Below, one piece after another: positions 10,560 to 63,707 of a DNA stretch of 64,000 nt. The number at the start of each line of letters is the position of its first letter. Positions within the stretch are counted from its first letter, which is position 1. The notes below the pieces were generated by a model. It saw only the letters and a list, made by a program, of their open reading frames with translations, was not told where the DNA came from and did no database searches. The position numbers and the translations under genes are program-made. The stretch is from Halarcobacter sp. (GTDB taxonomy: Bacteria; Campylobacterota; Campylobacteria; Campylobacterales; Arcobacteraceae), in NCBI GenBank assembly GCA_963676565.1, contig OY781089.1, positions 32,001 through 96,000 on the forward strand, in the 5' to 3' direction.

Positions 10560-11393
10560 TTAAATTACATAATCAATATTAAGTGGTAATTCTATAAAAA
10601 ACTTAGCTCCATGCTCAGTATTTTTAACAAAAAGTTCTCCACCTAATTTATTAACTACAATATCATAGCTAGAATATAATCCTATCCCCGTACTATGTTC
10701 ATAAGCTTTTGTTGTAAAATACGAATCAAAGATTTTATCCATGATTTTTTCTTCTATTCCGCCAGCATTATCTTCTATTGTAATTTGAAGAGAATACTCT
10801 TTTTTTATTAACTCATACTTAATCCACTTATCTTTAATTTGATTTTCCAATAAGGCATCTTTTGCATTAGTTAAAATTGAGATAAGAACTTGTAGTAATT
10901 CCCCTAAAATCAATTTAAAAGGGATTTTTTCTTTCTCAATAAAGCCTTCAATTATTTTAATATTGTGTAAAGAAAAAGATGATTCAATTAAACTAATTGC
11001 CATCTTTAGTCTATCTTGAATAATAATCTCTTTTTTCTTATTTGTAAATTCTATATAATCTCTAAATTCATCTATTGTTTTAGAAAGATAAACTGAACTT
11101 TCAAGGATTGAATCTGAATAATTTAAAAAATCTTTATCATCTAAAACACCCATCTCTTTTTTCAGTTTCATTCCACTTGCAGCTGTAGAAATCACACATA
11201 AAGGTTTTCTCCATTGGTGGGCAATATTACCAATTAGTTCTCCCATTTGAGACATCTTGATTTGTTCAAATATTTTTTTTTCTTTTTGTGAATTTTGTTG
11301 TTTTATTAGATTGATTTCTTCTTTTAGCTCTTTTACTATTAGCTCTAATTTCTTATTTTTTGTTTCTAATTCATATAATTTATCGTCTAAGAT
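10560..11393 (-). CDS. Cytoplasmic histidine kinase (coiled coil + HisKA + HATPase); start probably at ATC 11393
   Basis: H-box IAHQWRKPL, N-box TNAKDA, DNAGGI, TGIGLY. The frame stays open 46 codons upstream of the tracked ATG (11255), up to an ATC with SD GGGAG 6 nt before it. Confidence 0.8.
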   Translation of the reverse strand: MLDDKLYELETKNKKLELIVKELKEEINLIKQQNSQKEKKIFEQIKMSQMGELIGNIAHQWRKPLCVISTAASGMKLKKEMGVLDDKDFLNYSDSILESSVYLSKTIDEFRDYIEFTNKKKEIIIQDRLKMAISLIESSFSLHNIKIIEGFIEKEKIPFKLILGELLQVLISILTNAKDALLENQIKDKWIKYELIKKEYSLQITIEDNAGGIEEKIMDKIFDSYFTTKAYEHSTGIGLYSSYDIVVNKLGGELFVKNTEHGAKFFIELPLNIDYVI

Positions 11394-23888: not shown

Positions 23889-24773
23889 ATGAGCGCAGGA
23901 AAAAAATTTAGAGAAGCATTAAAAGAAGAATCTCCACTACAAATCGTAGGGACAATCAATGCTTACCAAGCATTACAAGCTACTAAAGTTGGATACAAAG
24001 CTATCTATTTATCAGGTGGTGGTATTGCTAACGCTTCATACGGTTTACCAGATTTAGGTATGACTATGATTGAAGATGTTTGTATTGATATTAGAAGAGT
24101 TACTTCTATTTGTGATACTCCATTAATTGTTGATGCAGATACAGGTTGGGGACATGCATTCAACGTTGCTAGAACTGTTAAAGAATTTATCAGAGCTGGT
24201 GCTGCTGGATTACATATCGAAGATCAAGTTGCTGCAAAAAGATGTGGTCACAGACCTAATAAAGAGTTAGTTACAACAGAAGAGATGTGTGACAGAATTA
24301 GAGCTGCAGTTGATGCAAAAATGCAATTAGACCCAGATTTCTACATTATTGCTAGAACTGATGCACATGCATCTGAAGGTCAAGAAGCTGCAGTAGCTAG
24401 AGCAAAAGCTTATGTTGAAGCTGGAGCAGATGCAATTTTCGCTGAAGCAGTTCATACATTAAAAGAATACAAAGAGTTCTGTGAACAAATGACTGTACCA
24501 GTATTAGCAAACATTACTGAGTTTGGGGCAACTCCAATGTTTACTACTGAAGAGTTAGGTTCAGTTGGAATTGAAATGGTTCTTTATCCATTATCTGCAT
24601 TTAGAGCAATGAACAAAGCTGCATTAAATGTATATAAAGAACTAAGAGAAAAAGGTACTCAAGAAGGTGTTCTTGATACTATGCAAACAAGAATGGAGCT
24701 TTACGATATGTTAGGTTACCATGACTATGAACAAAAAATGGACGAGTTATTTTCTAAGGGAAAAGCTAAGTAA
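23889..24773 (+). CDS. prpB: 2-methylisocitrate lyase
   Basis: KRCGH catalytic loop, [15 protein letters not shown]. Confidence 0.96.
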
Positions 24774-24831
24774 TTAGACTTAAAAAATAAAAATAAAAAA
24801 ACTAGGGAAAAGTTTACAAAAGGAGAAATTT

Positions 24832-25980
24832 ATGAGTACTACTACGGGATTTAAACCAAAAAAATCTGTTGCTTTATCAGGGCACGCTGCAGGGAACACT
24901 GCTATTTGTACAGTTGGAAAAAGTGGAAATGATTTACACTATAGAGGGTATGATATTTTAGAATTTGCTAACACTGCAGAATTTGAAGAGATTGCATACT
25001 TAATTGTACATGAAAAATTACCTAATAAAGCAGAATTAGCTGCTTATAAAGAAAAACTACAGGGGATGAGAGATATTCCAGATGGTGTTAAAGTTGCATT
25101 AGAGCAATTACCAAAAACTTCTCACCCAATGGACGTAATGAGAACTGGTTGTTCTGTTCTTGGAGCAATTATGTCTGAAGATGAGTCTCACCCAAAAGAG
25201 GGAGCACAATTAATCGTTGATAAATTAATGGCATGTTTTGGTTCTATGTTATGTTACTGGTACCACTATGCATATAATGGAAAAAGAATTGATGTTGTAA
25301 CTGATGATGATTCAGTTGGTGGTCACTTCTTACACCTATTACATGGTGAAAAGCCAAGAGAATCTTGGGTTAGAGCTATGCATACATCATTAATTTTATA
25401 TGCAGAGCACGAATTTAATGCATCTACATTTACTTCAAGAGTAATTTCTGGAACTAACTCAGATATGTTCTCTTGTATTACTGGTGCAATTGGAGCATTA
25501 AGAGGTCCTAAACATGGTGGAGCAAATGAAGTTGCATTCTATATCCAAGAAAGATACTCTTCACCTGATGAAGCAGAAAAAGACATCTTAGAAAGAATGG
25601 CAAGAAAAGAGATTATTATTGGTTTTGGACACCCAGTTTATTCTGTATGTGACCCAAGAAACGTTGTAATCAAAAAAGTTGCTGAAGACTTATCAAAAGA
25701 AAACAACAACACTTTAATGTATGATGTTGCTGAAAGAATTGAATCTGTAATGTGGAAAAACAAAAAAATGTTCCCTAACTTAGACTGGTTCTCGGCTGTT
25801 TCTTATAACCAAATGGGAATCCCAACTGATATGTTTACTCCAATTTTCATTATCTCAAGAGTTACTGGATGGGGAGCACATGCTATTGAGCAAAGAGAAG
25901 ATGGTAAAATCATTAGACCTTCTGCAAACTATACTGGTCCAGAAGATTTAAAATATGTTCCAATAGAAGAAAGAGAATAA
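24832..25980 (+). CDS. prpC: 2-methylcitrate synthase
   Basis: [11 protein letters not shown]-terminus, [30 protein letters not shown]. Confidence 0.96.
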
Positions 25981-26000
25981 TCAAAAGATTATTGAAGACT

Positions 26001-26037
26001 TAAAAGCCATCAAGTTTTTTGATGGCTTTTATTTTTT
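26001..26037 (+). terminator. Intra-operon hairpin/terminator between prpC and acnD
   Basis: Inverted repeat TAAAAGCCATCAA / TTGATGGCTTTTA followed by a T-run. Confidence 0.65.
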
Positions 26038-26070
26038 ATAGAGAAAAAATTAAAAATAGGTATAAATAAT

Positions 26071-28665
26071 ATGACAAACGAAAAATATCTTAAAGACCTT
26101 GATGGTGTTGATGGTGTTAAATTTTACGATGTTAAAGCAGCGGTTGAAGATATTCAAGCTGGTTCATTTGAAAAATTAAACTATACTTCAAGAGTTTTAG
26201 CAGAGAACTTAATTAGAAAGTGTCCTAGTGAAGATTTAGAAGATTCATTAGTTCAATTAATTGAAAAAAGAACAGACAAAGATTTCCCTTGGTATCCATC
26301 AAGAGTTATTTGTCACGATATCTTAGGATTAACTGCATTTGTTGACTTAGCAGGATTAAGAGAAGCAGTTGCAGAAAAAGGTGGAAACCCAGATAAAGTA
26401 AATCCAGTAGTTCCTACTCAACTTATCGTTGACCACTCATTAGCAGTAGAGTGTGGTGGATTTGATCCAGATGCATTCCAAAAAAATAGAGATATTGAAG
26501 ATAGAAGAAATGCAGATAGATTCCACTTTATTAACTGGACAAAAGAAGCATTTAATAATGTAGATGTTATTCCTCCAGGTAATGGTATTATGCACCAAAT
26601 CAACCTTGAAAAAATGTCTCCAGTAGTTCACTTAAATGATGGAATTGCTAGTCCAGATACATTAGTTGGTACTGACTCACATACTCCACACGTTGATGCA
26701 CTTGGTGTTATTGCAGTTGGTGTTGGTGGATTAGAAGCTGAAAATGTAATGCTTGGAAACCCATCTTATATGAGAGTTCCTGAAATCATTGGTGTTGAAA
26801 TAGTTGGAGATAGAGCTCCTGGAATTACAGCAACTGATATTGCACTTTCTATGACTTCATTCTTAAGAGAAAACAATGTAATTTCAGCTTACTTAGAGTT
26901 CTTTGGACCTGGTATTAAATACCTTAACTTAGGTGATAGAGCAACTATTGCAAATATGACTCCTGAGTATGGTGCATCTGCTGGTATGTTCGCTATTGAT
27001 GAACAAACTATTTCTTACTTAAGAGTAACTGGTAGAGAAGAAAAACAATGTCAACTAGTAGAAGCTTATGCTAAAGCTAATGGTTTATGGGCAGATCAAT
27101 TTGAAAATGCTACATATGCTAGAACAATTCAATTTGACTTATCTAAAGTAACTAGATCTTTAGCAGGTCCTTCTAAACCTCACAAATTAGTTCCAACTTC
27201 AACTTTAAAAGAAGAAGGTATTGTAAAAGAGTGGACTCAAGAAGGTGATTTAATTCCAGATGGTGGTATTTTAATTGCGGCTATTACTTCTTGTACAAAT
27301 ACTTCAAATCCAAGAAATGTTATTGCTGCTGGATTACTAGCTAAAAAAGCAAATGAGCTAGGTCTATCTAGAAAGCCATGGGTTAAGTCTTCATTAGCAC
27401 CAGGTTCAAAAGTAATTGAAGTTTACTTAAAAGAAGCTGGATTATTACCAGAGATGGAAAAATTAGGATTTGGTGTAGTTGGTTTTGCATGTACTACTTG
27501 TAATGGTATGTCTGGTGCACTTGATCCAAAAATCCAACAAGAAGTAATTGATAGAGATATATACTCAACTGCTGTACTTTCTGGTAACAGAAACTTTGAT
27601 GGAAGAATCCACCCATACGTAAAAGAAGCATTCTTAGCATCTCCTGCATTAGTTGTTGCATATGCATTAGCTGGTACTGTTAGATTTGATATTGAAAATG
27701 ATTCTTTAGGTAAAGATAAAGATGGTAACGATATTAAATTAGCTGATTTATGGCCATCTGATGAGGAAATTGATGCAATTGAAAAAGAATTCGTTAGACC
27801 AGAAATGTATAATGCTATTTATGATCCAATGTTTGCAAGAGATGGAATTGCTGGAGTTAAAGTAGAACCATTCTATAAATGGAATCCAAACTCAACATAT
27901 ATTAACAAACCACCTTATTGGGAAGATGAATATATGCAAATGCCAGCATTAAAAGGTATGAGACCATTAGGTGTATTCCCTGATAATATCACTACTGACC
28001 ACTTATCACCATCAAATGCTATCTTACCAGATTCAGCTTCTGGAGAATATTGTATCTCTAAAGGTCTTCCAATCCCTGACCTTAACTCTTATGCAACGCA
28101 CAGAGGGGATCACAATACAGCTTCTAGAGCAACATTAGCAAATCCAAAACTATTTAACGAAATGGTTAAAGATGAAAATGGAAATGTTAAACAAGGTTCA
28201 TTAACTAAGATTATGCCAGAAGGTAAAGAATCTAGAATGTGGGAAGCTATTGAAGAGTATAACAATAGAAAACAACCACTTATTATCATTGCTGGTACTA
28301 ACTATGGTCAAGGTTCATCAAGAGACTGGGCTGCAAAAGGTGTACGTCTAGCTGGTGTTGAAGTTTTAATCGCTGAGTCAATTGAAAGAATCCACAGAAC
28401 TAACTTAGTTGGAATGGGTGTATTACCATTACAATTTAAAGAGGGTGATACTAGATTTACTTATGAAATTGATGGAAGTGAAACTTTTGATATCGAAGGT
28501 GAAATTACTCCTAGATGTGACTTAACTGTTGTTATGACTAGAGCAAATGGTGAAGTTGTTAAATTCGATGTTTTATGTAGACTAGATACTTCTGCTGAAG
28601 TTGAAGTTTATAAAAACGGTGGTATTTTACAAAAATTCGCTAAAGATGTTGTTGCTGAAGGTTAA
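26071..28665 (+). CDS. acnD: Fe/S-dependent 2-methylcitrate/2-methylisocitrate dehydratase AcnD
   Basis: Aconitase fold: IVDHSL, GTDSHT, TSCTNTS, CTTCNG, GSSRDWAAKG; lies between prpC and prpF. Confidence 0.95.
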   Translation: MTNEKYLKDLDGVDGVKFYDVKAAVEDIQAGSFEKLNYTSRVLAENLIRKCPSEDLEDSLVQLIEKRTDKDFPWYPSRVICHDILGLTAFVDLAGLREAVAEKGGNPDKVNPVVPTQLIVDHSLAVECGGFDPDAFQKNRDIEDRRNADRFHFINWTKEAFNNVDVIPPGNGIMHQINLEKMSPVVHLNDGIASPDTLVGTDSHTPHVDALGVIAVGVGGLEAENVMLGNPSYMRVPEIIGVEIVGDRAPGITATDIALSMTSFLRENNVISAYLEFFGPGIKYLNLGDRATIANMTPEYGASAGMFAIDEQTISYLRVTGREEKQCQLVEAYAKANGLWADQFENATYARTIQFDLSKVTRSLAGPSKPHKLVPTSTLKEEGIVKEWTQEGDLIPDGGILIAAITSCTNTSNPRNVIAAGLLAKKANELGLSRKPWVKSSLAPGSKVIEVYLKEAGLLPEMEKLGFGVVGFACTTCNGMSGALDPKIQQEVIDRDIYSTAVLSGNRNFDGRIHPYVKEAFLASPALVVAYALAGTVRFDIENDSLGKDKDGNDIKLADLWPSDEEIDAIEKEFVRPEMYNAIYDPMFARDGIAGVKVEPFYKWNPNSTYINKPPYWEDEYMQMPALKGMRPLGVFPDNITTDHLSPSNAILPDSASGEYCISKGLPIPDLNSYATHRGDHNTASRATLANPKLFNEMVKDENGNVKQGSLTKIMPEGKESRMWEAIEEYNNRKQPLIIIAGTNYGQGSSRDWAAKGVRLAGVEVLIAESIERIHRTNLVGMGVLPLQFKEGDTRFTYEIDGSETFDIEGEITPRCDLTVVMTRANGEVVKFDVLCRLDTSAEVEVYKNGGILQKFAKDVVAEG

Positions 28666-28779
28666 TAAACCTTTTTATCAATATCTATAATTTTAGGGCA
28701 CTTTTGCCCTAAAATATTAAATTTTTTCTAAAAAATCTTATTGATTTTTTAGTAAGAATTTATAATAAGGGAAAAGATT

Positions 28780-29955
28780 ATGGCTTACAAACCGCAATTT
28801 AAAGTAAAAGCTACATATATGAGAGGTGGAACTTCTAAAGGAACATTTTTCAATATTGCAGATTTACCTGAAGAAGCAAAACAAGATCCAAGAAAAAGAG
28901 ATAAATTATTACAAAGAATCGTAGGATCTCCAGATTTGTATAAAAAACAAATTGATGGTATGGGTGGAGCAACTTCATCTACTTCAAAAGCTATTTTAGT
29001 TGGAAAATCTGATGTTCCAAATCACGATGTTGATTACTATTTTTGCCAAGTAGCTATTGATAAAGACTTTGTTGATATGAGTGGAAACTGTGGAAACTTA
29101 TCAAGTGCTGTTGGTCCTTTTGCTATACATGAGGGATTAGTAGATAATGTACCTGAGAATGGAGTTTGTTGTGTAAGAATTTGGCAAGCAAACATCAAAA
29201 AAACTATTCTATGTTATGTAACAATGGAAAATGGAATGGTTAAAGAGATGGGTGATTACGAGATTGATGGAGTTGCCTTTCCAGCAGAAGAGATTGTTTT
29301 AGAATTTGTTGAGCCAGTTGATCCATCTGAAGAGTTATTTCCAACTGGTAATTTAGTAGATGATTTAGAGGTTCCTGGTGTTGGAACTTTTAAAGCTACT
29401 ATGATAACTGCTGGTATTCCAACTGTATTTGTAAATGCAGATGAAATTGGATATAAAGGAACAGAACTTCAAGGTGATATTAACTCTGATGTTGAAGCAC
29501 TTGAGAGATTTGAAAAAATTAGAATTGCAGGTGCACTTAAAATGGGCGTTATGAAAAGTGCAGAAGATGCATTAACTCAACAACATACACCAAAAATTGC
29601 ATTTGTTTCACCTCCACAAGATTTTACTACTTCAAGTGGAAAGGAAGTAAAAGCTGATGAGATGGATTTACATGTAAGAGCATTATCTATGCAACAACTT
29701 CACCATGCTATGATGGGAACTGCTTCAGTTGCAATTGGAGTTGCAGCTTGTGTTCCTGGAACTTTAGTAAATATTGCTGCAGGTGGGGGAGAAAAAGATT
29801 CTGTTACTTTTGGACATCCAAGTGGAGCTATTAAAGTTGGTGCAACACTATCTAAAGATGGTGATAAATATATTGTTGAAAAAGCTAGTATGAGTAGAAG
29901 TGCTAGAATTATCATGGATGGGAATGTTCATGTTCCTGCTGGGACTATGGATTAA
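28780..29955 (+). CDS. prpF: 2-methylaconitate isomerase PrpF
   Basis: YMRGGTSKG, GATSSTSK, SGNCGN, HHAMMGT, FGHPSG. Confidence 0.95.
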   Translation: MAYKPQFKVKATYMRGGTSKGTFFNIADLPEEAKQDPRKRDKLLQRIVGSPDLYKKQIDGMGGATSSTSKAILVGKSDVPNHDVDYYFCQVAIDKDFVDMSGNCGNLSSAVGPFAIHEGLVDNVPENGVCCVRIWQANIKKTILCYVTMENGMVKEMGDYEIDGVAFPAEEIVLEFVEPVDPSEELFPTGNLVDDLEVPGVGTFKATMITAGIPTVFVNADEIGYKGTELQGDINSDVEALERFEKIRIAGALKMGVMKSAEDALTQQHTPKIAFVSPPQDFTTSSGKEVKADEMDLHVRALSMQQLHHAMMGTASVAIGVAACVPGTLVNIAAGGGEKDSVTFGHPSGAIKVGATLSKDGDKYIVEKASMSRSARIIMDGNVHVPAGTMD

Positions 29956-29990
29956 TTTATAAACTTTTAACAAAAATAATTTTAATCACT

Positions 29991-30023
29991 AAAGGAAGGG
30001 TATTTTTTACTTTTCCTTTTTTT
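29991..30023 (+). terminator. Terminator after the prp operon
   Basis: Imperfect hairpin AAAGGAAGGGTA / TACTTTTCCTTT plus T-run. Confidence 0.55.
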
Positions 30024-30096
30024 ATTTAACTTATTGATACCCTTTTAATACTATCTTACACTATAATTATGTTAATATATGAAAGGGGAGACTATT

Positions 30097-30672
30097 ATGT
30101 CTAAAACAAAAATAATTTTTGGTATATTTTTAATAACTTTAATGTTATCGACACTTTTGTTTACAGCATTCCCTTCTCTTTATTCTAATAATGAAACTGG
30201 GAAGATATATAAACAAGTTGATACAAATTTTAATTTTTTAAAAAATGAAGACTCTGAATATGTACTACTTTATTTTGGTTATGTTGGTTGTACAACAATT
30301 TGTTCACCTGCATTAAATGAGATTAGCCAAATATACAAAAAACTTGATAAAAATAAATTTACTTTCTATTTTGTAAATTTACAAGAAAATATACCAAAAG
30401 AGAATGTTGATTTATTTGCAAAAGTTTTTGATGAAGACTTTACAGGAATTTATCTAAATAATCAAGAGATAAAAAAAATAATAAATACACTTAATATAAA
30501 ATTTGTACCTTCAATGTTAGATAAATATGAAATTGACCATTCAGGTTTTTTACATGTTTTAAAAAAAGAAGAGAACAATATATATCAACAAAAGTTTATT
30601 TATACAACAAGACCACTTCAAATTGAAGAAATAATTAAAGATTTAAATAATACAAAAGGAGCGTCATCATGA
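30097..30672 (+). CDS. SCO1/SenC family copper chaperone
   Basis: N-terminal TM anchor, [10 protein letters not shown] (CxxxC), distal His in IDHSG; SD AAGGGGAG before ATG 30097. Confidence 0.85.
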
Positions 30673-32537
30673 TAAAAATATTTTTTCCATTTTTGGATAA
30701 AAGTTTACCACAAAAGGTTCAGGAGAGTTTAGCAGAAGACTATAGAAATGCTGACAAAATCATGCTTATAGTTTCGTTTATAAGCTTTTTACTAGTAGCT
30801 GGCGTAACATCGTATAGTAATGGTACTTATTTTATAGGTCTTGTTGGTGGAGGGATAACATTTGTATCAACTTTTATAGCATATAAAATATTTAGAGGTA
30901 CAGTATTATCTCGTATTATATTTGGTACAGCCTTTGTAATATATCCTGCTATCATGATTTCACAACAACTAGGTATGATTGAGATGCACTTCTTCTTTTT
31001 TGTATATGTTGCTGCATTTGTTGTATATAAAGATATTACTGCAATGATGGCAATGACAGCGGTAACAGGTGTGCATCACCTTTTATTTACCTACTTACAA
31101 CTAAATGGTGTTTCAATTATGGGTAAAGAAATTATACTTATGAGTACTAATTGTAGTTGGTTATTTACATTTATTCATATTTTTGTATTTTTAATAGAAC
31201 TTATAATTTTAATTTATGCAGTTTATACGCTAATTAATCAATTTATTCAAGCTAAGACATTACAATTTGAATCGGCTGAAGCATTTGAAAGATTAGAAGA
31301 AACAACTTTATTGAATAAAAAAATTATTGATGAAACTATTGATGTGGCAAATAGTGTAAATTCTGGTGTTTTAACAGCAAGAGTACAAAGTGATACAAAA
31401 GATGAAAATATAAAAGCATTAAAAGATATTATAAATGATATGATGAATAATCTTGAAAGAAAAATTGCATCTGATTTAAATGAAATTACATCAGTCTTAC
31501 AAGAATTTACAAATAACAACTTCACTTCAAAAATAAATTCAAAAGGTGAACTTGCGCAGAACCTTAATATTCTTGCTGATGTGATTACAAATATGCTTAT
31601 TGAAAATAAAGAAAATGGTTTAACTCTTCAAAGTAGTGCATCAATGCTTTCATCAAATGTAAATAATCTTAATACATCATCAAATACTGCAGCAGCCTCA
31701 TTGGAAGAAACAGCCGCAGCAGTAGAAGAGATAACATCAATTATTAAAACAAATAATGAAAAAGTAAATAGAATGTCTATTTTGGCAAATGATTTAAATA
31801 AATCAGCACGTGATGGAGAAAGTTTAGCAACTAAAACAACTTCAGCTATGGATGATATTGATACACAAGTTCAAGCTATCAATGATGCAATTACTGTTAT
31901 TGATCAAATTGCTTTCCAAACAAATATTCTATCTTTAAATGCAGCAGTTGAAGCAGCAACAGCAGGGGAAGCTGGAAAAGGATTTGCAGTTGTAGCCCAA
32001 GAGGTAAGAAACCTTGCAAGTAGAAGTGCGGAAGCAGCAAAAGAGATTAAAAATTTAGTTGAAAATGCTACAACAAAAGCAAATGAAGGTAAAACAATTG
32101 CTGATAATATGATTAAAGGATATTCTGATTTAAATAGTAAAGTTAGTGAAACAATTGAACTAATTGCAGATGTTGATTCTGCTTCTAAAGAGCAAGAAAC
32201 AGGTATTGTTCAGATTAATGATGCTATTAACTCTTTAGATAAACAAACTCAAGAAAATGCAATGATTGCAAGTGAAACAAATGATATTGCAACTCAAACA
32301 AATCAAATTGCAGAAATTATTCTAACTAGTGCAGATGAAAAAGAGTTTGAAGGTAAAACTTCTGTAAAAGCAAGGGATATAAAAGTTAGTAAAGCCTCAA
32401 CTTCAATATCTACTAAGCCATATGAAGCAACTGCTAAACCAAAAGCAGAGATTAAAAAAGTAGAACCTAAAGCTACAAATTCACAAAAAACAGTAACTGC
32501 AAATAATACTAACGATGATGAGTGGGAAAGCTTTTAA
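30669..32537 (+). CDS. Methyl-accepting chemotaxis protein with multi-TM membrane sensor domain
   Basis: About 6 TM segments; signalling hairpin [38 protein letters not shown]-terminal pentapeptide EWESF. Confidence 0.95.
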
Positions 32538-32546
32538 TATAAAAAA

Positions 32547-32569
32547 AGGATAGTTTTAAAAACTATCCT
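32547..32569. terminator. Hairpin between convergent MCP and thioredoxin genes
   Basis: Inverted repeat AGGATAGTTTT / AAAACTATCCT. Confidence 0.55.
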
Positions 32570-32942
32570 CATTATCTAAAACCTTAAGAATATTCTCTTT
32601 TTTTTGATAACCTTGAAATTCATATAAAATAGTTAACTCCCCATCATTTTTTTCAATAACATAAGAAGTGGGAAAATATTTTATAGAAAAAGAATACTTT
32701 TCTAAAAGCTTTTTGAAAATATCACTAGAATCATTCACATAAAACATATATAAATCATCTCTAATCACATCAATCTCTTCAAGTACTCTTTTTTGTTTAG
32801 CACACCAAGGACAGTAATCGGTACTAAATATAAGAAAGGTGTTTTTATCTTCTTTAATTTCATCAAGGGTTTTTAACTCTTTAATTTCTGAAGAGACTAA
32901 AAAGCTTGATAGTACAAAAATTAAAAAAACAATCTTTCCCAT
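32556..32942 (-). CDS. Exported thioredoxin-like protein
   Basis: Signal peptide, CPWC, cis-Pro motif YFPT. Confidence 0.8.
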   Translation of the reverse strand: MGKIVFLIFVLSSFLVSSEIKELKTLDEIKEDKNTFLIFSTDYCPWCAKQKRVLEEIDVIRDDLYMFYVNDSSDIFKKLLEKYSFSIKYFPTSYVIEKNDGELTILYEFQGYQKKENILKVLDNEDSF

Positions 32943-32954
32943 AATCAATCCCTT

Positions 32955-33583: not shown

Positions 33584-34525
33584 TTAATCTTCAAATGCTA
33601 CTTTTTCAGCACGAGCTAATAACTCCTTAGCCCCTTGGTCAATAAATGTTTGAGCTAAATTTTTACCTAAATTTTCAAAGTTTTCAAGATCTGCAACTAT
33701 ATCTTCTTGGATATATTCACTACCATCTGGCATACCAACTATTGCTTTTACATCAATAGAGTTTTCATCTAAAATTGTTGCTTTTACTCCAATTGGAACT
33801 TGACAACCACCCTCTAATGTTCTTACAAAATCTCTTTCAATAGTTGATTCAATATGTGCATTTTTATCATGTAATACAGAAACAATATCAATAATCTCTT
33901 TATTATCTAAAGTTTCAATACCTAAAGTTGCTTGCCCCATAGATGGAATCATATCATCTGTTGAAATAGGTTTGAAATATTTTACCTCATCTTCTATTTG
34001 AAGTTTTTGTAATCCAGTTGCAGCAAGAATAATTGCATCATACTCACCAGCTTTTAATTTTGCAATTCTAGTGTTGATGTTTCCTCTTAAATCTTTTAAA
34101 ACAATATCTGGTCTTAAAAGTTTTAATTCTAATCTTCTTCTTAAACTTGTTGTTCCAACAACTGCACCATTTGGTAAATCATGAAGACCTTCATATTTTT
34201 CACTTAAAAAAGCATCCCTTGGATCAAATCTTTTTGTAACTGCAGCTAATGCAAATCCCTCTTCAAAATTAACAGGAACATCTTTTAAACTATGTACAGC
34301 TATATGAGCTTCTTTTGAAGCAAGTGCAATCTCAAGCTCTTTTGTAAATAATCCCTTACCTCCAATTTTTGCTAAAGGTACATCTAAAATCTTATCAGCT
34401 TTTGTAGAAAATGTTTTTAACTCAATCTCCATATCTGGGTAATGTTTATTTAATTCAGCTTTTATATATTCACTTTGCCATAGTGCTAATTTGCTTTTCC
34501 TTGTTGCAATTATCAATTTTTCCAT
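33584..34525 (-). CDS. hemC: Hydroxymethylbilane synthase
   Basis: ATRKSKLALWQ, GGKGLFTKE, VHSLKD, GTTSLRR, GGCQVP. Confidence 0.97.
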   Translation of the reverse strand: MEKLIIATRKSKLALWQSEYIKAELNKHYPDMEIELKTFSTKADKILDVPLAKIGGKGLFTKELEIALASKEAHIAVHSLKDVPVNFEEGFALAAVTKRFDPRDAFLSEKYEGLHDLPNGAVVGTTSLRRRLELKLLRPDIVLKDLRGNINTRIAKLKAGEYDAIILAATGLQKLQIEDEVKYFKPISTDDMIPSMGQATLGIETLDNKEIIDIVSVLHDKNAHIESTIERDFVRTLEGGCQVPIGVKATILDENSIDVKAIVGMPDGSEYIQEDIVADLENFENLGKNLAQTFIDQGAKELLARAEKVAFED

Positions 34526-34526
34526 T

Positions 34527-35363
34527 CTAATTTCCTAACATTTCATATTTTAATTTTGATTTATCTTGCTCACCATTAACAAAAATAGTTGGTGTTCCTT
34601 GAACCATCACATTATCTCCTTTAGAGATATCAGCTGATAATTCATCTCCAATTTTTTCATTTTTGATATCGTTTATTGTGTATGAAGTATTAAACTCTTT
34701 ATTGAACCCATCAATAACTTTTTGAGCATTTGTCTCTTTTGAATCAAAATATTTATCCCAATCTGCTTCATATACTTTTAATTCAATATCAGTCATCCCA
34801 TCATTTTTTGCGACTACCATAAGAGCTGATAAAGGGGCAGATGCTGGATGAATTCTTAATAATGGGAAATGATAATAATACAATGCAATACTATCTTTAT
34901 GTTTTTTTACATAATTTATTACATCAGGTAAATAATCCATACAAAAAGGGCATAAAGGGTCTGAAAATACAACTAGCTTATCTTTTGCTTTAGGATTTCC
35001 TGCAATTAATTTTTTTTCATCATAATAATCTTTAGTTAATGTTGGATTCATCAAATCTTTTAATGCCATACCTGTTTTTATATCAAAAAGTTCAGGGGCA
35101 ATAATCTCACCATTTGAAAAAACAACATCTTTTGCTTTTATCTCTTTTCCTGCCATTTTTGCATCTAAATCAATGATATATCCATACCAACCTTTTTGTG
35201 GCATCTCTTTTTTAGTATTTATTTTTACACTATTAATCTCTACTCTTTTATTTTTTGAAAATCTTTCTTTCTCAAATTTAAGTACATTATCATCAACAGT
35301 ATCATTTGCTAATAAACTTCCAAACATTAGTGCTGTTGCACCAATAACTGATATTAATTTCAT
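34527..35363 (-). CDS. Periplasmic thiol-disulfide oxidoreductase (DsbA/DsbC-like)
   Basis: Signal peptide, FSDPLCPFC, VQGTPT. Confidence 0.85.
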   Translation of the reverse strand: MKLISVIGATALMFGSLLANDTVDDNVLKFEKERFSKNKRVEINSVKINTKKEMPQKGWYGYIIDLDAKMAGKEIKAKDVVFSNGEIIAPELFDIKTGMALKDLMNPTLTKDYYDEKKLIAGNPKAKDKLVVFSDPLCPFCMDYLPDVINYVKKHKDSIALYYYHFPLLRIHPASAPLSALMVVAKNDGMTDIELKVYEADWDKYFDSKETNAQKVIDGFNKEFNTSYTINDIKNEKIGDELSADISKGDNVMVQGTPTIFVNGEQDKSKLKYEMLGN

Positions 35364-43457: not shown

Positions 43458-44054
43458 TTATAAGTTACCTTCGTTTTTACCTAAGTACTCAGCTACACCT
43501 TCAGTAGATGGTTTCATACCTTCGTCACCTTTATTCCACCCAGCAGGACAAACTTCACCATGCTCATTAGTAAAAATCATTGTATCTACCATTCTAATCA
43601 TTTCATCAATGTTTCTACCTAATGGTAAGTCGTTAATTACAGCGTGTCTTACAGTACCATCTTTGTCAATTAAGAATGAACCTCTTAATGCAACAGAATC
43701 ACCAAATAGTACATCATAATCTCTTGAAATTTGTTTTGAAAGGTCAGCAACTAGAGGGAATTTAACTCTACCAATACCACCATTTTCAACTGGAGTTTCT
43801 CTCCATGCAAAGTGAGAGAATTGTGAATCTACAGAACAACCAATAACTTGGATTCCTCTTGAAGTAAACTCTTCAATTCTTTTTGAGAATGCAATAATTT
43901 CTGATGGACAAACGAAAGTAAAGTCTAGTGGATAGAAAAATAATACCGCACCTTTTTCACCAATATTGTCATATAAATTAAAATCTTCAACGATTTGACC
44001 ATCAGCAAGTACAGCTGTTGCTGTAAAATCTGGAGCTTTTTTTGTAACTAACAT
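43458..44054 (-). CDS. ahpC: 2-Cys peroxiredoxin (AhpC), copy 1
   Basis: FYPLDFTFVCP, GEVCPAGW; divergent from ferredoxin. Confidence 0.96.
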   Translation of the reverse strand: MLVTKKAPDFTATAVLADGQIVEDFNLYDNIGEKGAVLFFYPLDFTFVCPSEIIAFSKRIEEFTSRGIQVIGCSVDSQFSHFAWRETPVENGGIGRVKFPLVADLSKQISRDYDVLFGDSVALRGSFLIDKDGTVRHAVINDLPLGRNIDEMIRMVDTMIFTNEHGEVCPAGWNKGDEGMKPSTEGVAEYLGKNEGNL

Positions 44055-63110: not shown

Positions 63111-63707
63111 ATGTTAGTAACAAAAAAAGCTCCAGATTTTACAGCAACAGCTGTAATGGCAGATGGTCAAATCAAAGAAGATTTTAATTTATACAATAAT
63201 ATTGGTGAGAAAGGTGCAGTTTTATTTTTCTGGCCTTTAGATTTTACTTTTGTTTGTCCATCAGAAATTATCGCATTCTCAAAAAGAGTTGCTGATTTTG
63301 AAGAAAGAGGAATTCAAGTAATTGGTTGTTCAATTGACTCAGAATTTTCTCACTTTGCATGGAGAGAAACTGCTGTTGAAAATGGTGGAATTGGAAGAGT
63401 TAAGTTTCCAATGGTTGCAGATATCACAAAACAAATTTCAAGAGATTATGATGTATTATTTGGAGAATCTGTAGCACTTAGAGGATCATTCTTAATTGAT
63501 AAAGATGGTACAGTAAGACATGCAGTTGTAAATGACTTACCATTAGGTAGAAATATTGATGAGATGATTAGAATGGTTGATACTATGTTATTTACTAATG
63601 AACATGGTGAAGTTTGTCCTGCAGGATGGAGTAAAGGTGATGAAGGTATGAAAGCATCTACAGAAGGTGTTGCTGAATACTTAGGTAAAAATGAAAATAA
63701 ACTATAA
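63111..63707 (+). CDS. ahpC: 2-Cys peroxiredoxin (AhpC), copy 2
   Basis: FWPLDFTFVCP, GEVCPAGW; about 89% identical to copy 1 by manual count. Confidence 0.95.
   Translation: MLVTKKAPDFTATAVMADGQIKEDFNLYNNIGEKGAVLFFWPLDFTFVCPSEIIAFSKRVADFEERGIQVIGCSIDSEFSHFAWRETAVENGGIGRVKFPMVADITKQISRDYDVLFGESVALRGSFLIDKDGTVRHAVVNDLPLGRNIDEMIRMVDTMLFTNEHGEVCPAGWSKGDEGMKASTEGVAEYLGKNENKL

Follow-up and report, generated by a model that had tools for sequence, protein, structure and literature searches.

A SCO1/SenC-family protein and a six-helix chemoreceptor encoded as a pair in Halarcobacter sp.: a probable new type of metal-dependent sensor

Of all the inputs to bacterial signalling, sensor domains embedded in the membrane are the most poorly understood. 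The ethylene-binding domain of ETR1 is a three-helix unit whose copper site, formed by Cys and His, lies on the second helix, and proteins of the SCO family bind copper through a Cys-x3-Cys motif and a histidine and pass it to His-lined sites in membrane proteins. One SCO homologue, SenC/PrrC, has been implicated in signalling in the Rhodobacter redox two-component system, where its gene neighbours that of the six-helix redox kinase RegB/PrrB, to which it may pass on a signal. To our knowledge, MHYT is the only membrane-embedded sensor domain with recent experimental support as a copper-based gas sensor. Its sensing of CO requires copper (PMC11347149). The chemoreceptor CttP is described as having a single N-terminal transmembrane segment and no ligand-binding domain (10.1101/081455). 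Here we describe a gene pair from Halarcobacter sp., located in a 64,000-nucleotide stretch of contig OY781089.1 (positions 32,001 to 96,000; hereafter the window, in whose coordinates all positions are given), that encodes a SCO1/SenC-family protein and a methyl-accepting chemotaxis protein (MCP) with a six-helix membrane domain, and that probably represents a new type of metal-dependent sensor. We consider it very likely that the two proteins are functional partners, and regard the chances as evenly balanced that they form a dedicated two-protein sensor in which the SCO protein supplies or holds copper at a histidine site.

The SCO1/SenC-family gene (30097..30672, plus strand) encodes 191 amino acids (aa); its open reading frame (ORF) has an alternative start at 30079, and the ATG at 30097 was preferred because the purine-rich AAGGGGAG sits 6 nt 5' of it. 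As read from the sequence, its stop codon shares the letters ATGA (30669-30672) with the start of the MCP gene (30669..32537, plus strand; 622 aa), and the two-gene unit with an overlap proposed in a first-pass annotation of this DNA is thereby borne out, with both ORFs and the overlap at the positions given there. Both genes are present only once in the window. The same annotation had named the first product a SCO protein on the strength of a CTTIC motif and a histidine, and by every sequence test that product is a true member of the SCO1/SenC family: it matches the Pfam SCO1-SenC model (PF02630) with an E-value of 6.3e-11 and 42.8 bits against a cut-off of 22.8, and the sequence contains both the CxxxC metal/thiol motif C65-T-T-I-C69 (30289..30303, plus strand) and His148 within DHSG (30538..30540, plus strand), the third canonical SCO copper ligand. 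A hydrophobic N-terminal membrane anchor, at about residues 5-27, is followed by a thioredoxin-fold domain that is presumed to be periplasmic. C65, C69 and H148 are kept in 67/67 SCO proteins encoded beside homologous sensors (the window's own included), in which the loop motif reads FGYVGCxxICxP. Furthermore, a profile of 49 such pair-linked SCO proteins retrieved 15 chains from the PDB, all of the Sco/SCO1/SCO2 type (best match 2k6v, E 1.5e-23).

In these respects the protein resembles the SCO proteins of oxidase assembly, which serve CuA or the CuB of cbb3 oxidases: the family is the same, as are the Cys-x3-Cys motif with its histidine, the membrane anchor and the periplasmic domain. It would differ from them in its client, here a signalling receptor, and in its setting, given that the window holds no oxidase genes. 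Pfam scans of 60 window ORFs (6 at E≤0.01 and 54 at E≤1e-12) returned no oxidase, copper enzyme or copper transporter, and the initial statement that cytochrome oxidase genes are missing from the window holds over these ORFs, the only unscanned ORF of at least 100 aa outside another gene being 26071-28665.

The second product had been called an MCP, and it contains the MCP signalling domain (MCPsignal, PF00015) at residues 372-525 (31782..32243, plus strand; E 5.6e-39). A match to HAMP at residues 224-263 is weak (E 0.01, 16.6 bits against a cut-off of 25). The protein ends in EWESF (32520..32534, plus strand; read from the sequence), an ending found in many close homologues and one that we take to resemble the xWxxF pentapeptide tethering the CheR/CheB adaptation enzymes in major receptors. 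Its input region, residues 1-200 (30669..31268, plus strand), was modelled with AlphaFold2 from a 136-sequence alignment as a six-helix membrane sensor domain, with a mean predicted local distance difference test score (pLDDT) of 97.4 and a predicted template modelling score (pTM) of 0.91. An amphipathic start leads into helix 1 (residues 15-49), which is followed by helices at 54-75, 79-99, 104-120, 124-145 and 164-199; in the full-length model the last of these runs unbroken to residue 231 (164-231) before a break. Since the signalling domain must be cytoplasmic and the helices number six, the N-terminus would be cytoplasmic and the loops 50-53, 100-103 and 146-163 periplasmic. The longest periplasmic loop measures only 18 residues in the model and carries a small hairpin at 149-154, in agreement with the earlier description of roughly six transmembrane segments and no periplasmic ligand domain.

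No described family or structure was recovered for this domain. Pfam searches with residues 1-200 and 1-340 at E≤10 yielded no match for the membrane part, and NCBIfam gave none for the sensor domain at E≤1. Similarly, a Foldseek comparison with the PDB produced no match at E≤0.001 (best E 0.93, with TM-scores of at most 0.39 among the matches listed), and a sequence-profile search of the PDB with the sensor domain found no chain at E≤1. The nearest clusters in the ESM Atlas are unnamed; MASE11, MASE7, MASE6 and 6TM_PilS were considered as relatives and set aside, their ESM Atlas scores of 0.82-0.85 making them leads at best. MASE3_PAS_HK was likewise rejected: two kinases (P0033 and P0234) align to it from inside the membrane region, but far below the model cut-off, and we take these alignments to be driven by the PAS-kinase part. 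Database names for proteins bearing the domain are only generic (methyl-accepting chemotaxis protein, PAS domain protein, hypothetical). The receptor input, whose fold is confidently predicted but which matches neither a named family nor a solved structure, is, as judged from sequence and structure comparison, a previously undescribed six-helix domain.

A phmmer search over 1.84 billion representatives placed this domain in 887 representative clusters at E≤0.001 and in 288 at E≤1e-10. It is N-terminal throughout, beginning within the first 46 residues in all of the 150 best matches listed, and no SCO-sensor fusion protein occurs among those 150, to which the search for fusions was confined. 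Outputs and conservation were counted in 75 diverse full-length members drawn from this search. MCPsignal is present in 35 of them, HATPase_c in 22, HisKA in 20, PAS-type domains in up to 17, Response_reg in 10, SpoIIE in 5, GGDEF and EAL in 2 each, and HD in 1. Because a single N-terminal input joins so many outputs, we take residues 1-200 to be a widespread sensory module and not a simple anchor.

Within the membrane, the domain carries an invariant polar set of the metal-ligand type. G102, E105, H107, F108, Y120, H137 and H170 are kept in 75/75 members, D29, G57 and Q144 in 74, G77 and F111 in 73, R82 in 72, H136, Q99 and D122 in 70, and Q98 in 69; H109 (62/75), M106 (57/75), E177 (49/75) and C162 (47/75) are less constant. 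The E105-M106-H107 segment (30981..30989, plus strand) lies at the periplasmic start of helix 4, the H136-H137 pair (31074..31079, plus strand) in helix 5 and H170 (31176..31178, plus strand) in the outer part of helix 6, while C162 (31152..31154, plus strand), just ahead of helix 6, is too variable to define the family. Five short motifs had been singled out in the first-pass annotation, namely EMHF (residues 105-108), AMMAM (125-129), GVHH (134-137), NCSW (161-164) and IHIF (169-172), and they fared differently when set against the family. The histidines of EMHF, GVHH and IHIF are conserved (H107, H137 and H170 without exception, H136 nearly so); within EMHF itself, E105, H107 and F108 are invariant and only the methionine varies. 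AMMAM, in contrast, is not conserved, the family consensus being AILAAT, and the cysteine of NCSW is absent from too many members for that motif to be a family feature. We regard the arrangement as more than chance, and the case for this rests on conservation and gene linkage, and not on the motifs of the single window sequence.

Judged by where the helices of the model end, H107 is placed about 3 residues from the periplasmic end of its helix, H170 about 6, and H136 and H137 8-9, with Q98, Q99 and Q144 at the periplasmic helix ends themselves. On these limits, taken from a confident model, the histidines would share the outer half of the membrane, a placement that refers to depth and not to coordinates. 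A second conserved set, comprising D29, R82, Y120 and D122, lies at the cytoplasmic face. Haem b is typically ligated by conserved histidines from different membrane helices, and many family members have four or five histidines (H109 in 62/75, H136 in 70/75), both of which favour a reading in which the histidines bind haem b or another metal (Fe, Zn, Ni) and the SCO protein has some other use, for instance as a general thioredoxin-fold redox partner. Under that reading, however, neither the specific linkage to a SCO gene nor the retention of the copper triad in every pair-linked SCO protein would have an obvious reason, and the profile of those proteins matches only bona fide Sco structures; we regard it as improbable.

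Three described membrane or chemoreceptor systems can be set beside this domain. Ethylene-binding domains of the ETR1 type, plant and cyanobacterial, as generally described, join membrane-embedded copper for a small hydrophobic gas to dedicated copper delivery, as would be so here; unlike the three-helix domain of that description, the window domain has six helices, and no result obtained here points to alkenes, named in the initial proposal as one possible signal, or speaks against them. MHYT, with CoxC of Afipia carboxidovorans as its prototype, may be the best model, by analogy, for how the window domain works. It has six membrane helices, conserved histidines (with conserved Met and Tyr as well) near the periplasmic face and varied outputs, and the window sensor likewise has six helices with conserved histidines near that face, to the extent that depth can be read from helix limits. 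The two differ in that the Pfam MHYT model (PF03707) does not match window residues 1-200 at E≤10 and is absent from the 25 families listed, of 33, for the 75 members. They also differ in layout, the window domain carrying E-M-H-F in helix 4, an H-H pair in helix 5 and a single conserved H in helix 6, whereas MHYT consists of three repeats on alternate helices, and no dedicated SCO partner is mentioned for MHYT in the accessible part of PMC11347149. Finally, a resemblance to CttP/McpA of Pseudomonas aeruginosa had been suggested for the membrane part. Both are chemoreceptors without a recognisable periplasmic ligand-binding domain, but one transmembrane segment is described for CttP (10.1101/081455) against six helices here, and the suggested resemblance is set aside on that description.

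The association of the two genes was assessed in loci collected from one genome per species with two domain motifs, using patterns derived from 8 N-terminal sequences, and counts refer to the best 80 of 255 confirmed loci, whose 2247 ORFs were searched by phmmer with the window's SCO protein. A SCO gene directly adjoins the sensor gene in 66/80 loci, one per locus, lying upstream on the same strand in 58 (usually overlapping), divergent in 6 and convergent in 2, and there are no SCO matches elsewhere among the 2247 ORFs. The adjoining gene is present in all 15/15 loci outside the Campylobacterota, which by record title belong to Thiotrichales and other Gammaproteobacteria, five Balneolaceae, one lineage labelled Deltaproteobacteria and three unclassified lineages. 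SCO-linked sensors carry MCP outputs in 42 cases and other outputs in 24. Adjacency is therefore no peculiarity of the window genome and extends over Campylobacterota, Gammaproteobacteria, Balneolota and unclassified lineages. Two outcomes that would have counted against the initial proposal, unconserved histidines and a pairing confined to one genome, are thereby contradicted, and that proposal finds partial support overall, strong where linkage and conservation are concerned.

Six window neighbours (the thioredoxin-like gene, the isochorismatase, ORF 33584-34525, the DsbA-like gene, PrpF and the large upstream ORF) were sought in the same 80 loci and none recurs, indicating that the pair moves as a two-gene unit. 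In four unclassified or delta-type loci (L053, L058, L065 and L066) the SCO gene lies upstream in divergent orientation on the minus strand and the sensor has Thr162 in place of Cys, so the partnership survives both an altered gene order and the loss of Cys162. All 14 loci without a SCO match are from Campylobacterota; three of them (L048, L068, L075) have less than 450 nt of upstream sequence, and the neighbours in the eleven others are unrelated housekeeping genes. No SCO or other copper-chaperone family was found at E≤0.001 in the 30 flanking ORFs of these 14 loci. One of the eleven, L023, comes from a metagenome-assembled genome (MAG) with a SCO-linked copy elsewhere (L041). Short sensor ORFs were observed in two MAG loci (L050, 5989-6462, 157 aa; L025, 5971-6771, 266 aa), and may be broken genes or assembly errors.

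These data bear on the simplest account of the locus, in which the six-helix region is a mere anchor and the SCO gene a housekeeping oxidase-assembly gene adjacent by chance. Neither protein carries a specific annotation and the promoter motif ahead of the pair is not significant, which would suit such an account. It is contradicted by the invariant polar residues within the membrane, by the reuse of the domain with at least five output types and by an adjacency that spans phyla in 66/80 loci with no other conserved neighbour, and the lack of oxidase genes nearby also speaks against it; we find it scarcely credible.

A second account draws on the fact that some SCO proteins have thiol-disulfide oxidoreductase activity. 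The SCO protein would then act on C162 of the receptor, close to the periplasmic face, forming a redox switch without a metal cofactor, and this cysteine is indeed present in 56/66 SCO-linked receptors. Against it, C162 is replaced by E, Q, T or V in nine full-length receptors with a linked SCO gene (the short L050 ORF lacks that region), 28/75 family members are without the cysteine, and His148 of the SCO protein, a residue dispensable for disulfide exchange, is retained in 67/67. We consider such a switch very unlikely.

The gene order recalls that of Rhodobacter, where SenC/PrrC likewise represents a SCO-family gene next to a six-helix sensor without a periplasmic domain, the RegB side being taken from general descriptions. 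The two systems differ in several ways. The NCBIfam ActS/PrrB/RegB model (NF033792) aligns to just one family member, P0260, and there to the kinase core (residues 242-481), never to the membrane domain; it appears in one of seven member tables, each holding the best 25 families, and P0001 has no NCBIfam match at E≤1. The loop that joins helices 3 and 4 of the window receptor showed no quinone-site motif of the kind known from RegB. Moreover, unlike senC-regB, pairing of the window type spans MCP, kinase, phosphatase and cyclic di-GMP (c-di-GMP) outputs.

Pairwise identities among sensors and among their SCO partners are correlated, with a Mantel r of 0.78 that was reached in 0/2000 permutations and that is inflated by shared species history and physical linkage. 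More telling for specific pairing, at the level of sequence identity, are two genomes that carry two pairs each. Their SCO proteins are 70-78% identical to the orthologue in the other genome and 29-33% to the copy in their own, and the corresponding values for the sensors are 85-89% and 35-36%, so that separate sensor-SCO lineages occur side by side within a genome.

We also modelled the sensor domain together with the full SCO protein. The complex reached a median ipSAE of 0.68 (0.70, 0.68 and 0.66 in the three runs), against 0.00 for the best of 3 controls; the ipSAE mark applied is attained by 116/157 solved complexes and by 2/215 mismatched pairs, a rough comparison only, since the alignments were our own. 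At least 77% of contacts are shared among the runs, with a partner pLDDT of at least 76. In the model, SCO residues 1-6 touch the cytoplasmic loop 74-80, the SCO anchor (residues 8-29) packs against helices 2 and 3 and against residues 132, 136 and 140 of helix 5, and SCO residues 37, 39, 151 and 170 meet the periplasmic hairpin 150-156. These contacts are topologically coherent, and the model supports binding without demonstrating it. Because no solved relative of the sensor exists, recall of a memorised structure is an unlikely source of this result.

The predicted interface also bears on a further explanation, in which the SCO protein is a permanent co-receptor subunit that does the sensing: copper availability or the periplasmic redox state (oxidants, sulfide) would be registered at its Cys/His site, its anchor would relay the signal and the six-helix domain would transduce it. 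An interface dominated by the SCO anchor in helices 2, 3 and 5 suggests the stable contact that this arrangement would call for, paralogous receptors of one genome each keep their own co-diverging SCO protein, and SenC/PrrC beside RegB/PrrB provides a precedent. This explanation nevertheless leaves the invariant E105, H107, H137 and H170 without a role. Eleven receptors with adequate flanks have no adjoining SCO gene, and conservation of the anchor helix is no more than moderate, with G9, F25 and P26 each present in 25/49 pair-linked SCO proteins. On balance we judge it unlikely.

Copper supply by the SCO protein is the most economical reading, because the conserved triad is the known copper site of the family and delivery to His-lined membrane sites is a known activity of it. 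The receptor input would be the six-helix membrane domain, with a polar set, in the half of these helices (3 to 6) that faces the periplasm, composed of the invariant Glu105, His107, His137 and His170 and the near-invariant His136, Gln98, Gln99 and Gln144. The SCO anchor would pack on helices 2, 3 and 5 and so hold the soluble domain over the periplasmic hairpin of the sensor, from where the SCO protein would deliver copper to the His/Glu site, and might stay bound, giving an intramembrane copper centre. The state of this centre would shift when it binds a small diffusible molecule or when its redox state alters, with O2, NO, CO and sulfide as candidates, and the change would be relayed by helix 6, continuous with the cytoplasmic signalling helix, to the control of CheA. 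As a matter of speculation, O2, sulfide or NO are attractive signals because the carriers are largely sulfur oxidisers of oxic-sulfidic gradients.

In its fullest form, which we put forward tentatively and with considerable doubt, the proposal is that an intramembrane copper centre on three invariant histidines, with an adjacent His-His pair like that at the CuB site of haem-copper oxidases, and assembled by a dedicated SCO subunit that stays with it permanently, may read a dissolved gas or reductant (O2, NO, sulfide) and thereby steer chemotaxis, kinases and c-di-GMP enzymes in sulfur-oxidising gradient bacteria (Arcobacteraceae, Sulfurimonas, Sulfuricurvum, Thiomargarita and relatives) and in some Balneolaceae.

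Several observations weigh against copper supply by the SCO protein. Clusters of His, Glu and Gln also bind Fe, Zn, Ni or haem, and Met and Cys, the typical Cu(I) ligands, are not invariant in the domain (M106 and C162 being kept at the frequencies given above). At position 109 (30993-30995) the window receptor has Phe, a residue found there in 3/75 members, where most of the family has His in the motif HFH, and its clade thus has one histidine fewer than most. The eleven SCO-less receptors with enough flanking sequence have no SCO gene within 6 kb and yet keep all invariant residues, so that a SCO protein would act in trans or be unneeded in those cases. The SCO Cys/His site is not among the confident contacts of the complex, which consequently offers no geometry for copper transfer, and the predicted interface, formed mostly between the anchor and membrane helices, looks permanent rather than chaperone-like in the model. 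To these should be added the inflation of the Mantel correlation noted above and a bias in motif counts within the 80 loci, which arises because the search patterns include IEMHF and HHL.FTY and of which the 75-member set is free.

The pair is bracketed by two of the three terminator-like hairpins that were found, against an expectation of 0.6 ± 0.9. The first (29991..30019, plus strand) has a 12-pair stem followed by the T-run TTTTATTTAA and lies 3' of the upstream PrpF gene, thereby setting the SCO-MCP pair apart as its own unit. The second (32546..32570, 11-pair stem) is located between the MCP stop and a convergent thioredoxin-like gene. A hairpin after the pair had been noted at the outset and is present, but it scores on the minus strand and is shared with the convergent gene, which it also ends. 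The TATAAT hexamer noted upstream (30062..30067, plus strand) can similarly be read in the sequence, in AT-rich DNA; its role as a promoter lacks statistical support, with 21 promoter-like sites in 29900-32700 against 18.9 ± 4.2 in shuffled sequence, and since such sites are no more frequent than chance the promoter call was given no weight.

The genes surrounding the pair are of a housekeeping nature, and the closest relatives of its sequences place the window within the Arcobacteraceae. A same-strand operon upstream (23889-29955) resembles the 2-methylcitrate (propionate) pathway and comprises, all on the plus strand, genes of the phosphoenolpyruvate-mutase/isocitrate-lyase family (23889-24773) and the citrate synthase family (24832-25980), an 864-aa ORF that looks aconitase-like by eye (26071-28665) and PrpF (28780-29955; Pfam E 1.5e-154). 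The operon stops at the hairpin at 29991-30019 and has no link to the SCO-sensor pair in other genomes. Just 3' of the pair lie genes for two thioredoxin-fold proteins, probably secreted, which are tempting as redox partners of the SCO protein: a small CPWC thioredoxin-like protein (32556-32948, minus strand), convergent with the MCP gene, and a DsbA-like protein (34527-35363, minus strand). Neither recurs beside the pair in the 80 related loci. Elsewhere in the window, two AhpC/TSA peroxiredoxin genes of 198 aa each (43458-44054, minus strand; 63111-63707, plus strand) are situated about 19 kb apart, and a 231-aa ORF (10560-11255, minus strand) consists only of a histidine-kinase ATPase domain, in which neither a sensor nor a membrane segment can be recognised and which may represent a remnant or else a short kinase that is soluble.

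No description of the sensor domain or of a SCO-chemoreceptor pairing was found in the literature covered, as judged from search listings; this coverage excludes most subscription journals and is thus weak evidence of absence. The linked SCO partner names a likely cofactor for this input, and turns what would otherwise be an anonymous MCP without a ligand domain into a directly testable hypothesis. If the proposed arrangement is true, no SCO protein before this one would have been reserved for signalling receptors instead of respiratory oxidases, and the role of the family would widen from oxidase assembly to signalling. The carriers live mostly at oxic-sulfidic interfaces, and the module may explain how these bacteria find so narrow a niche.

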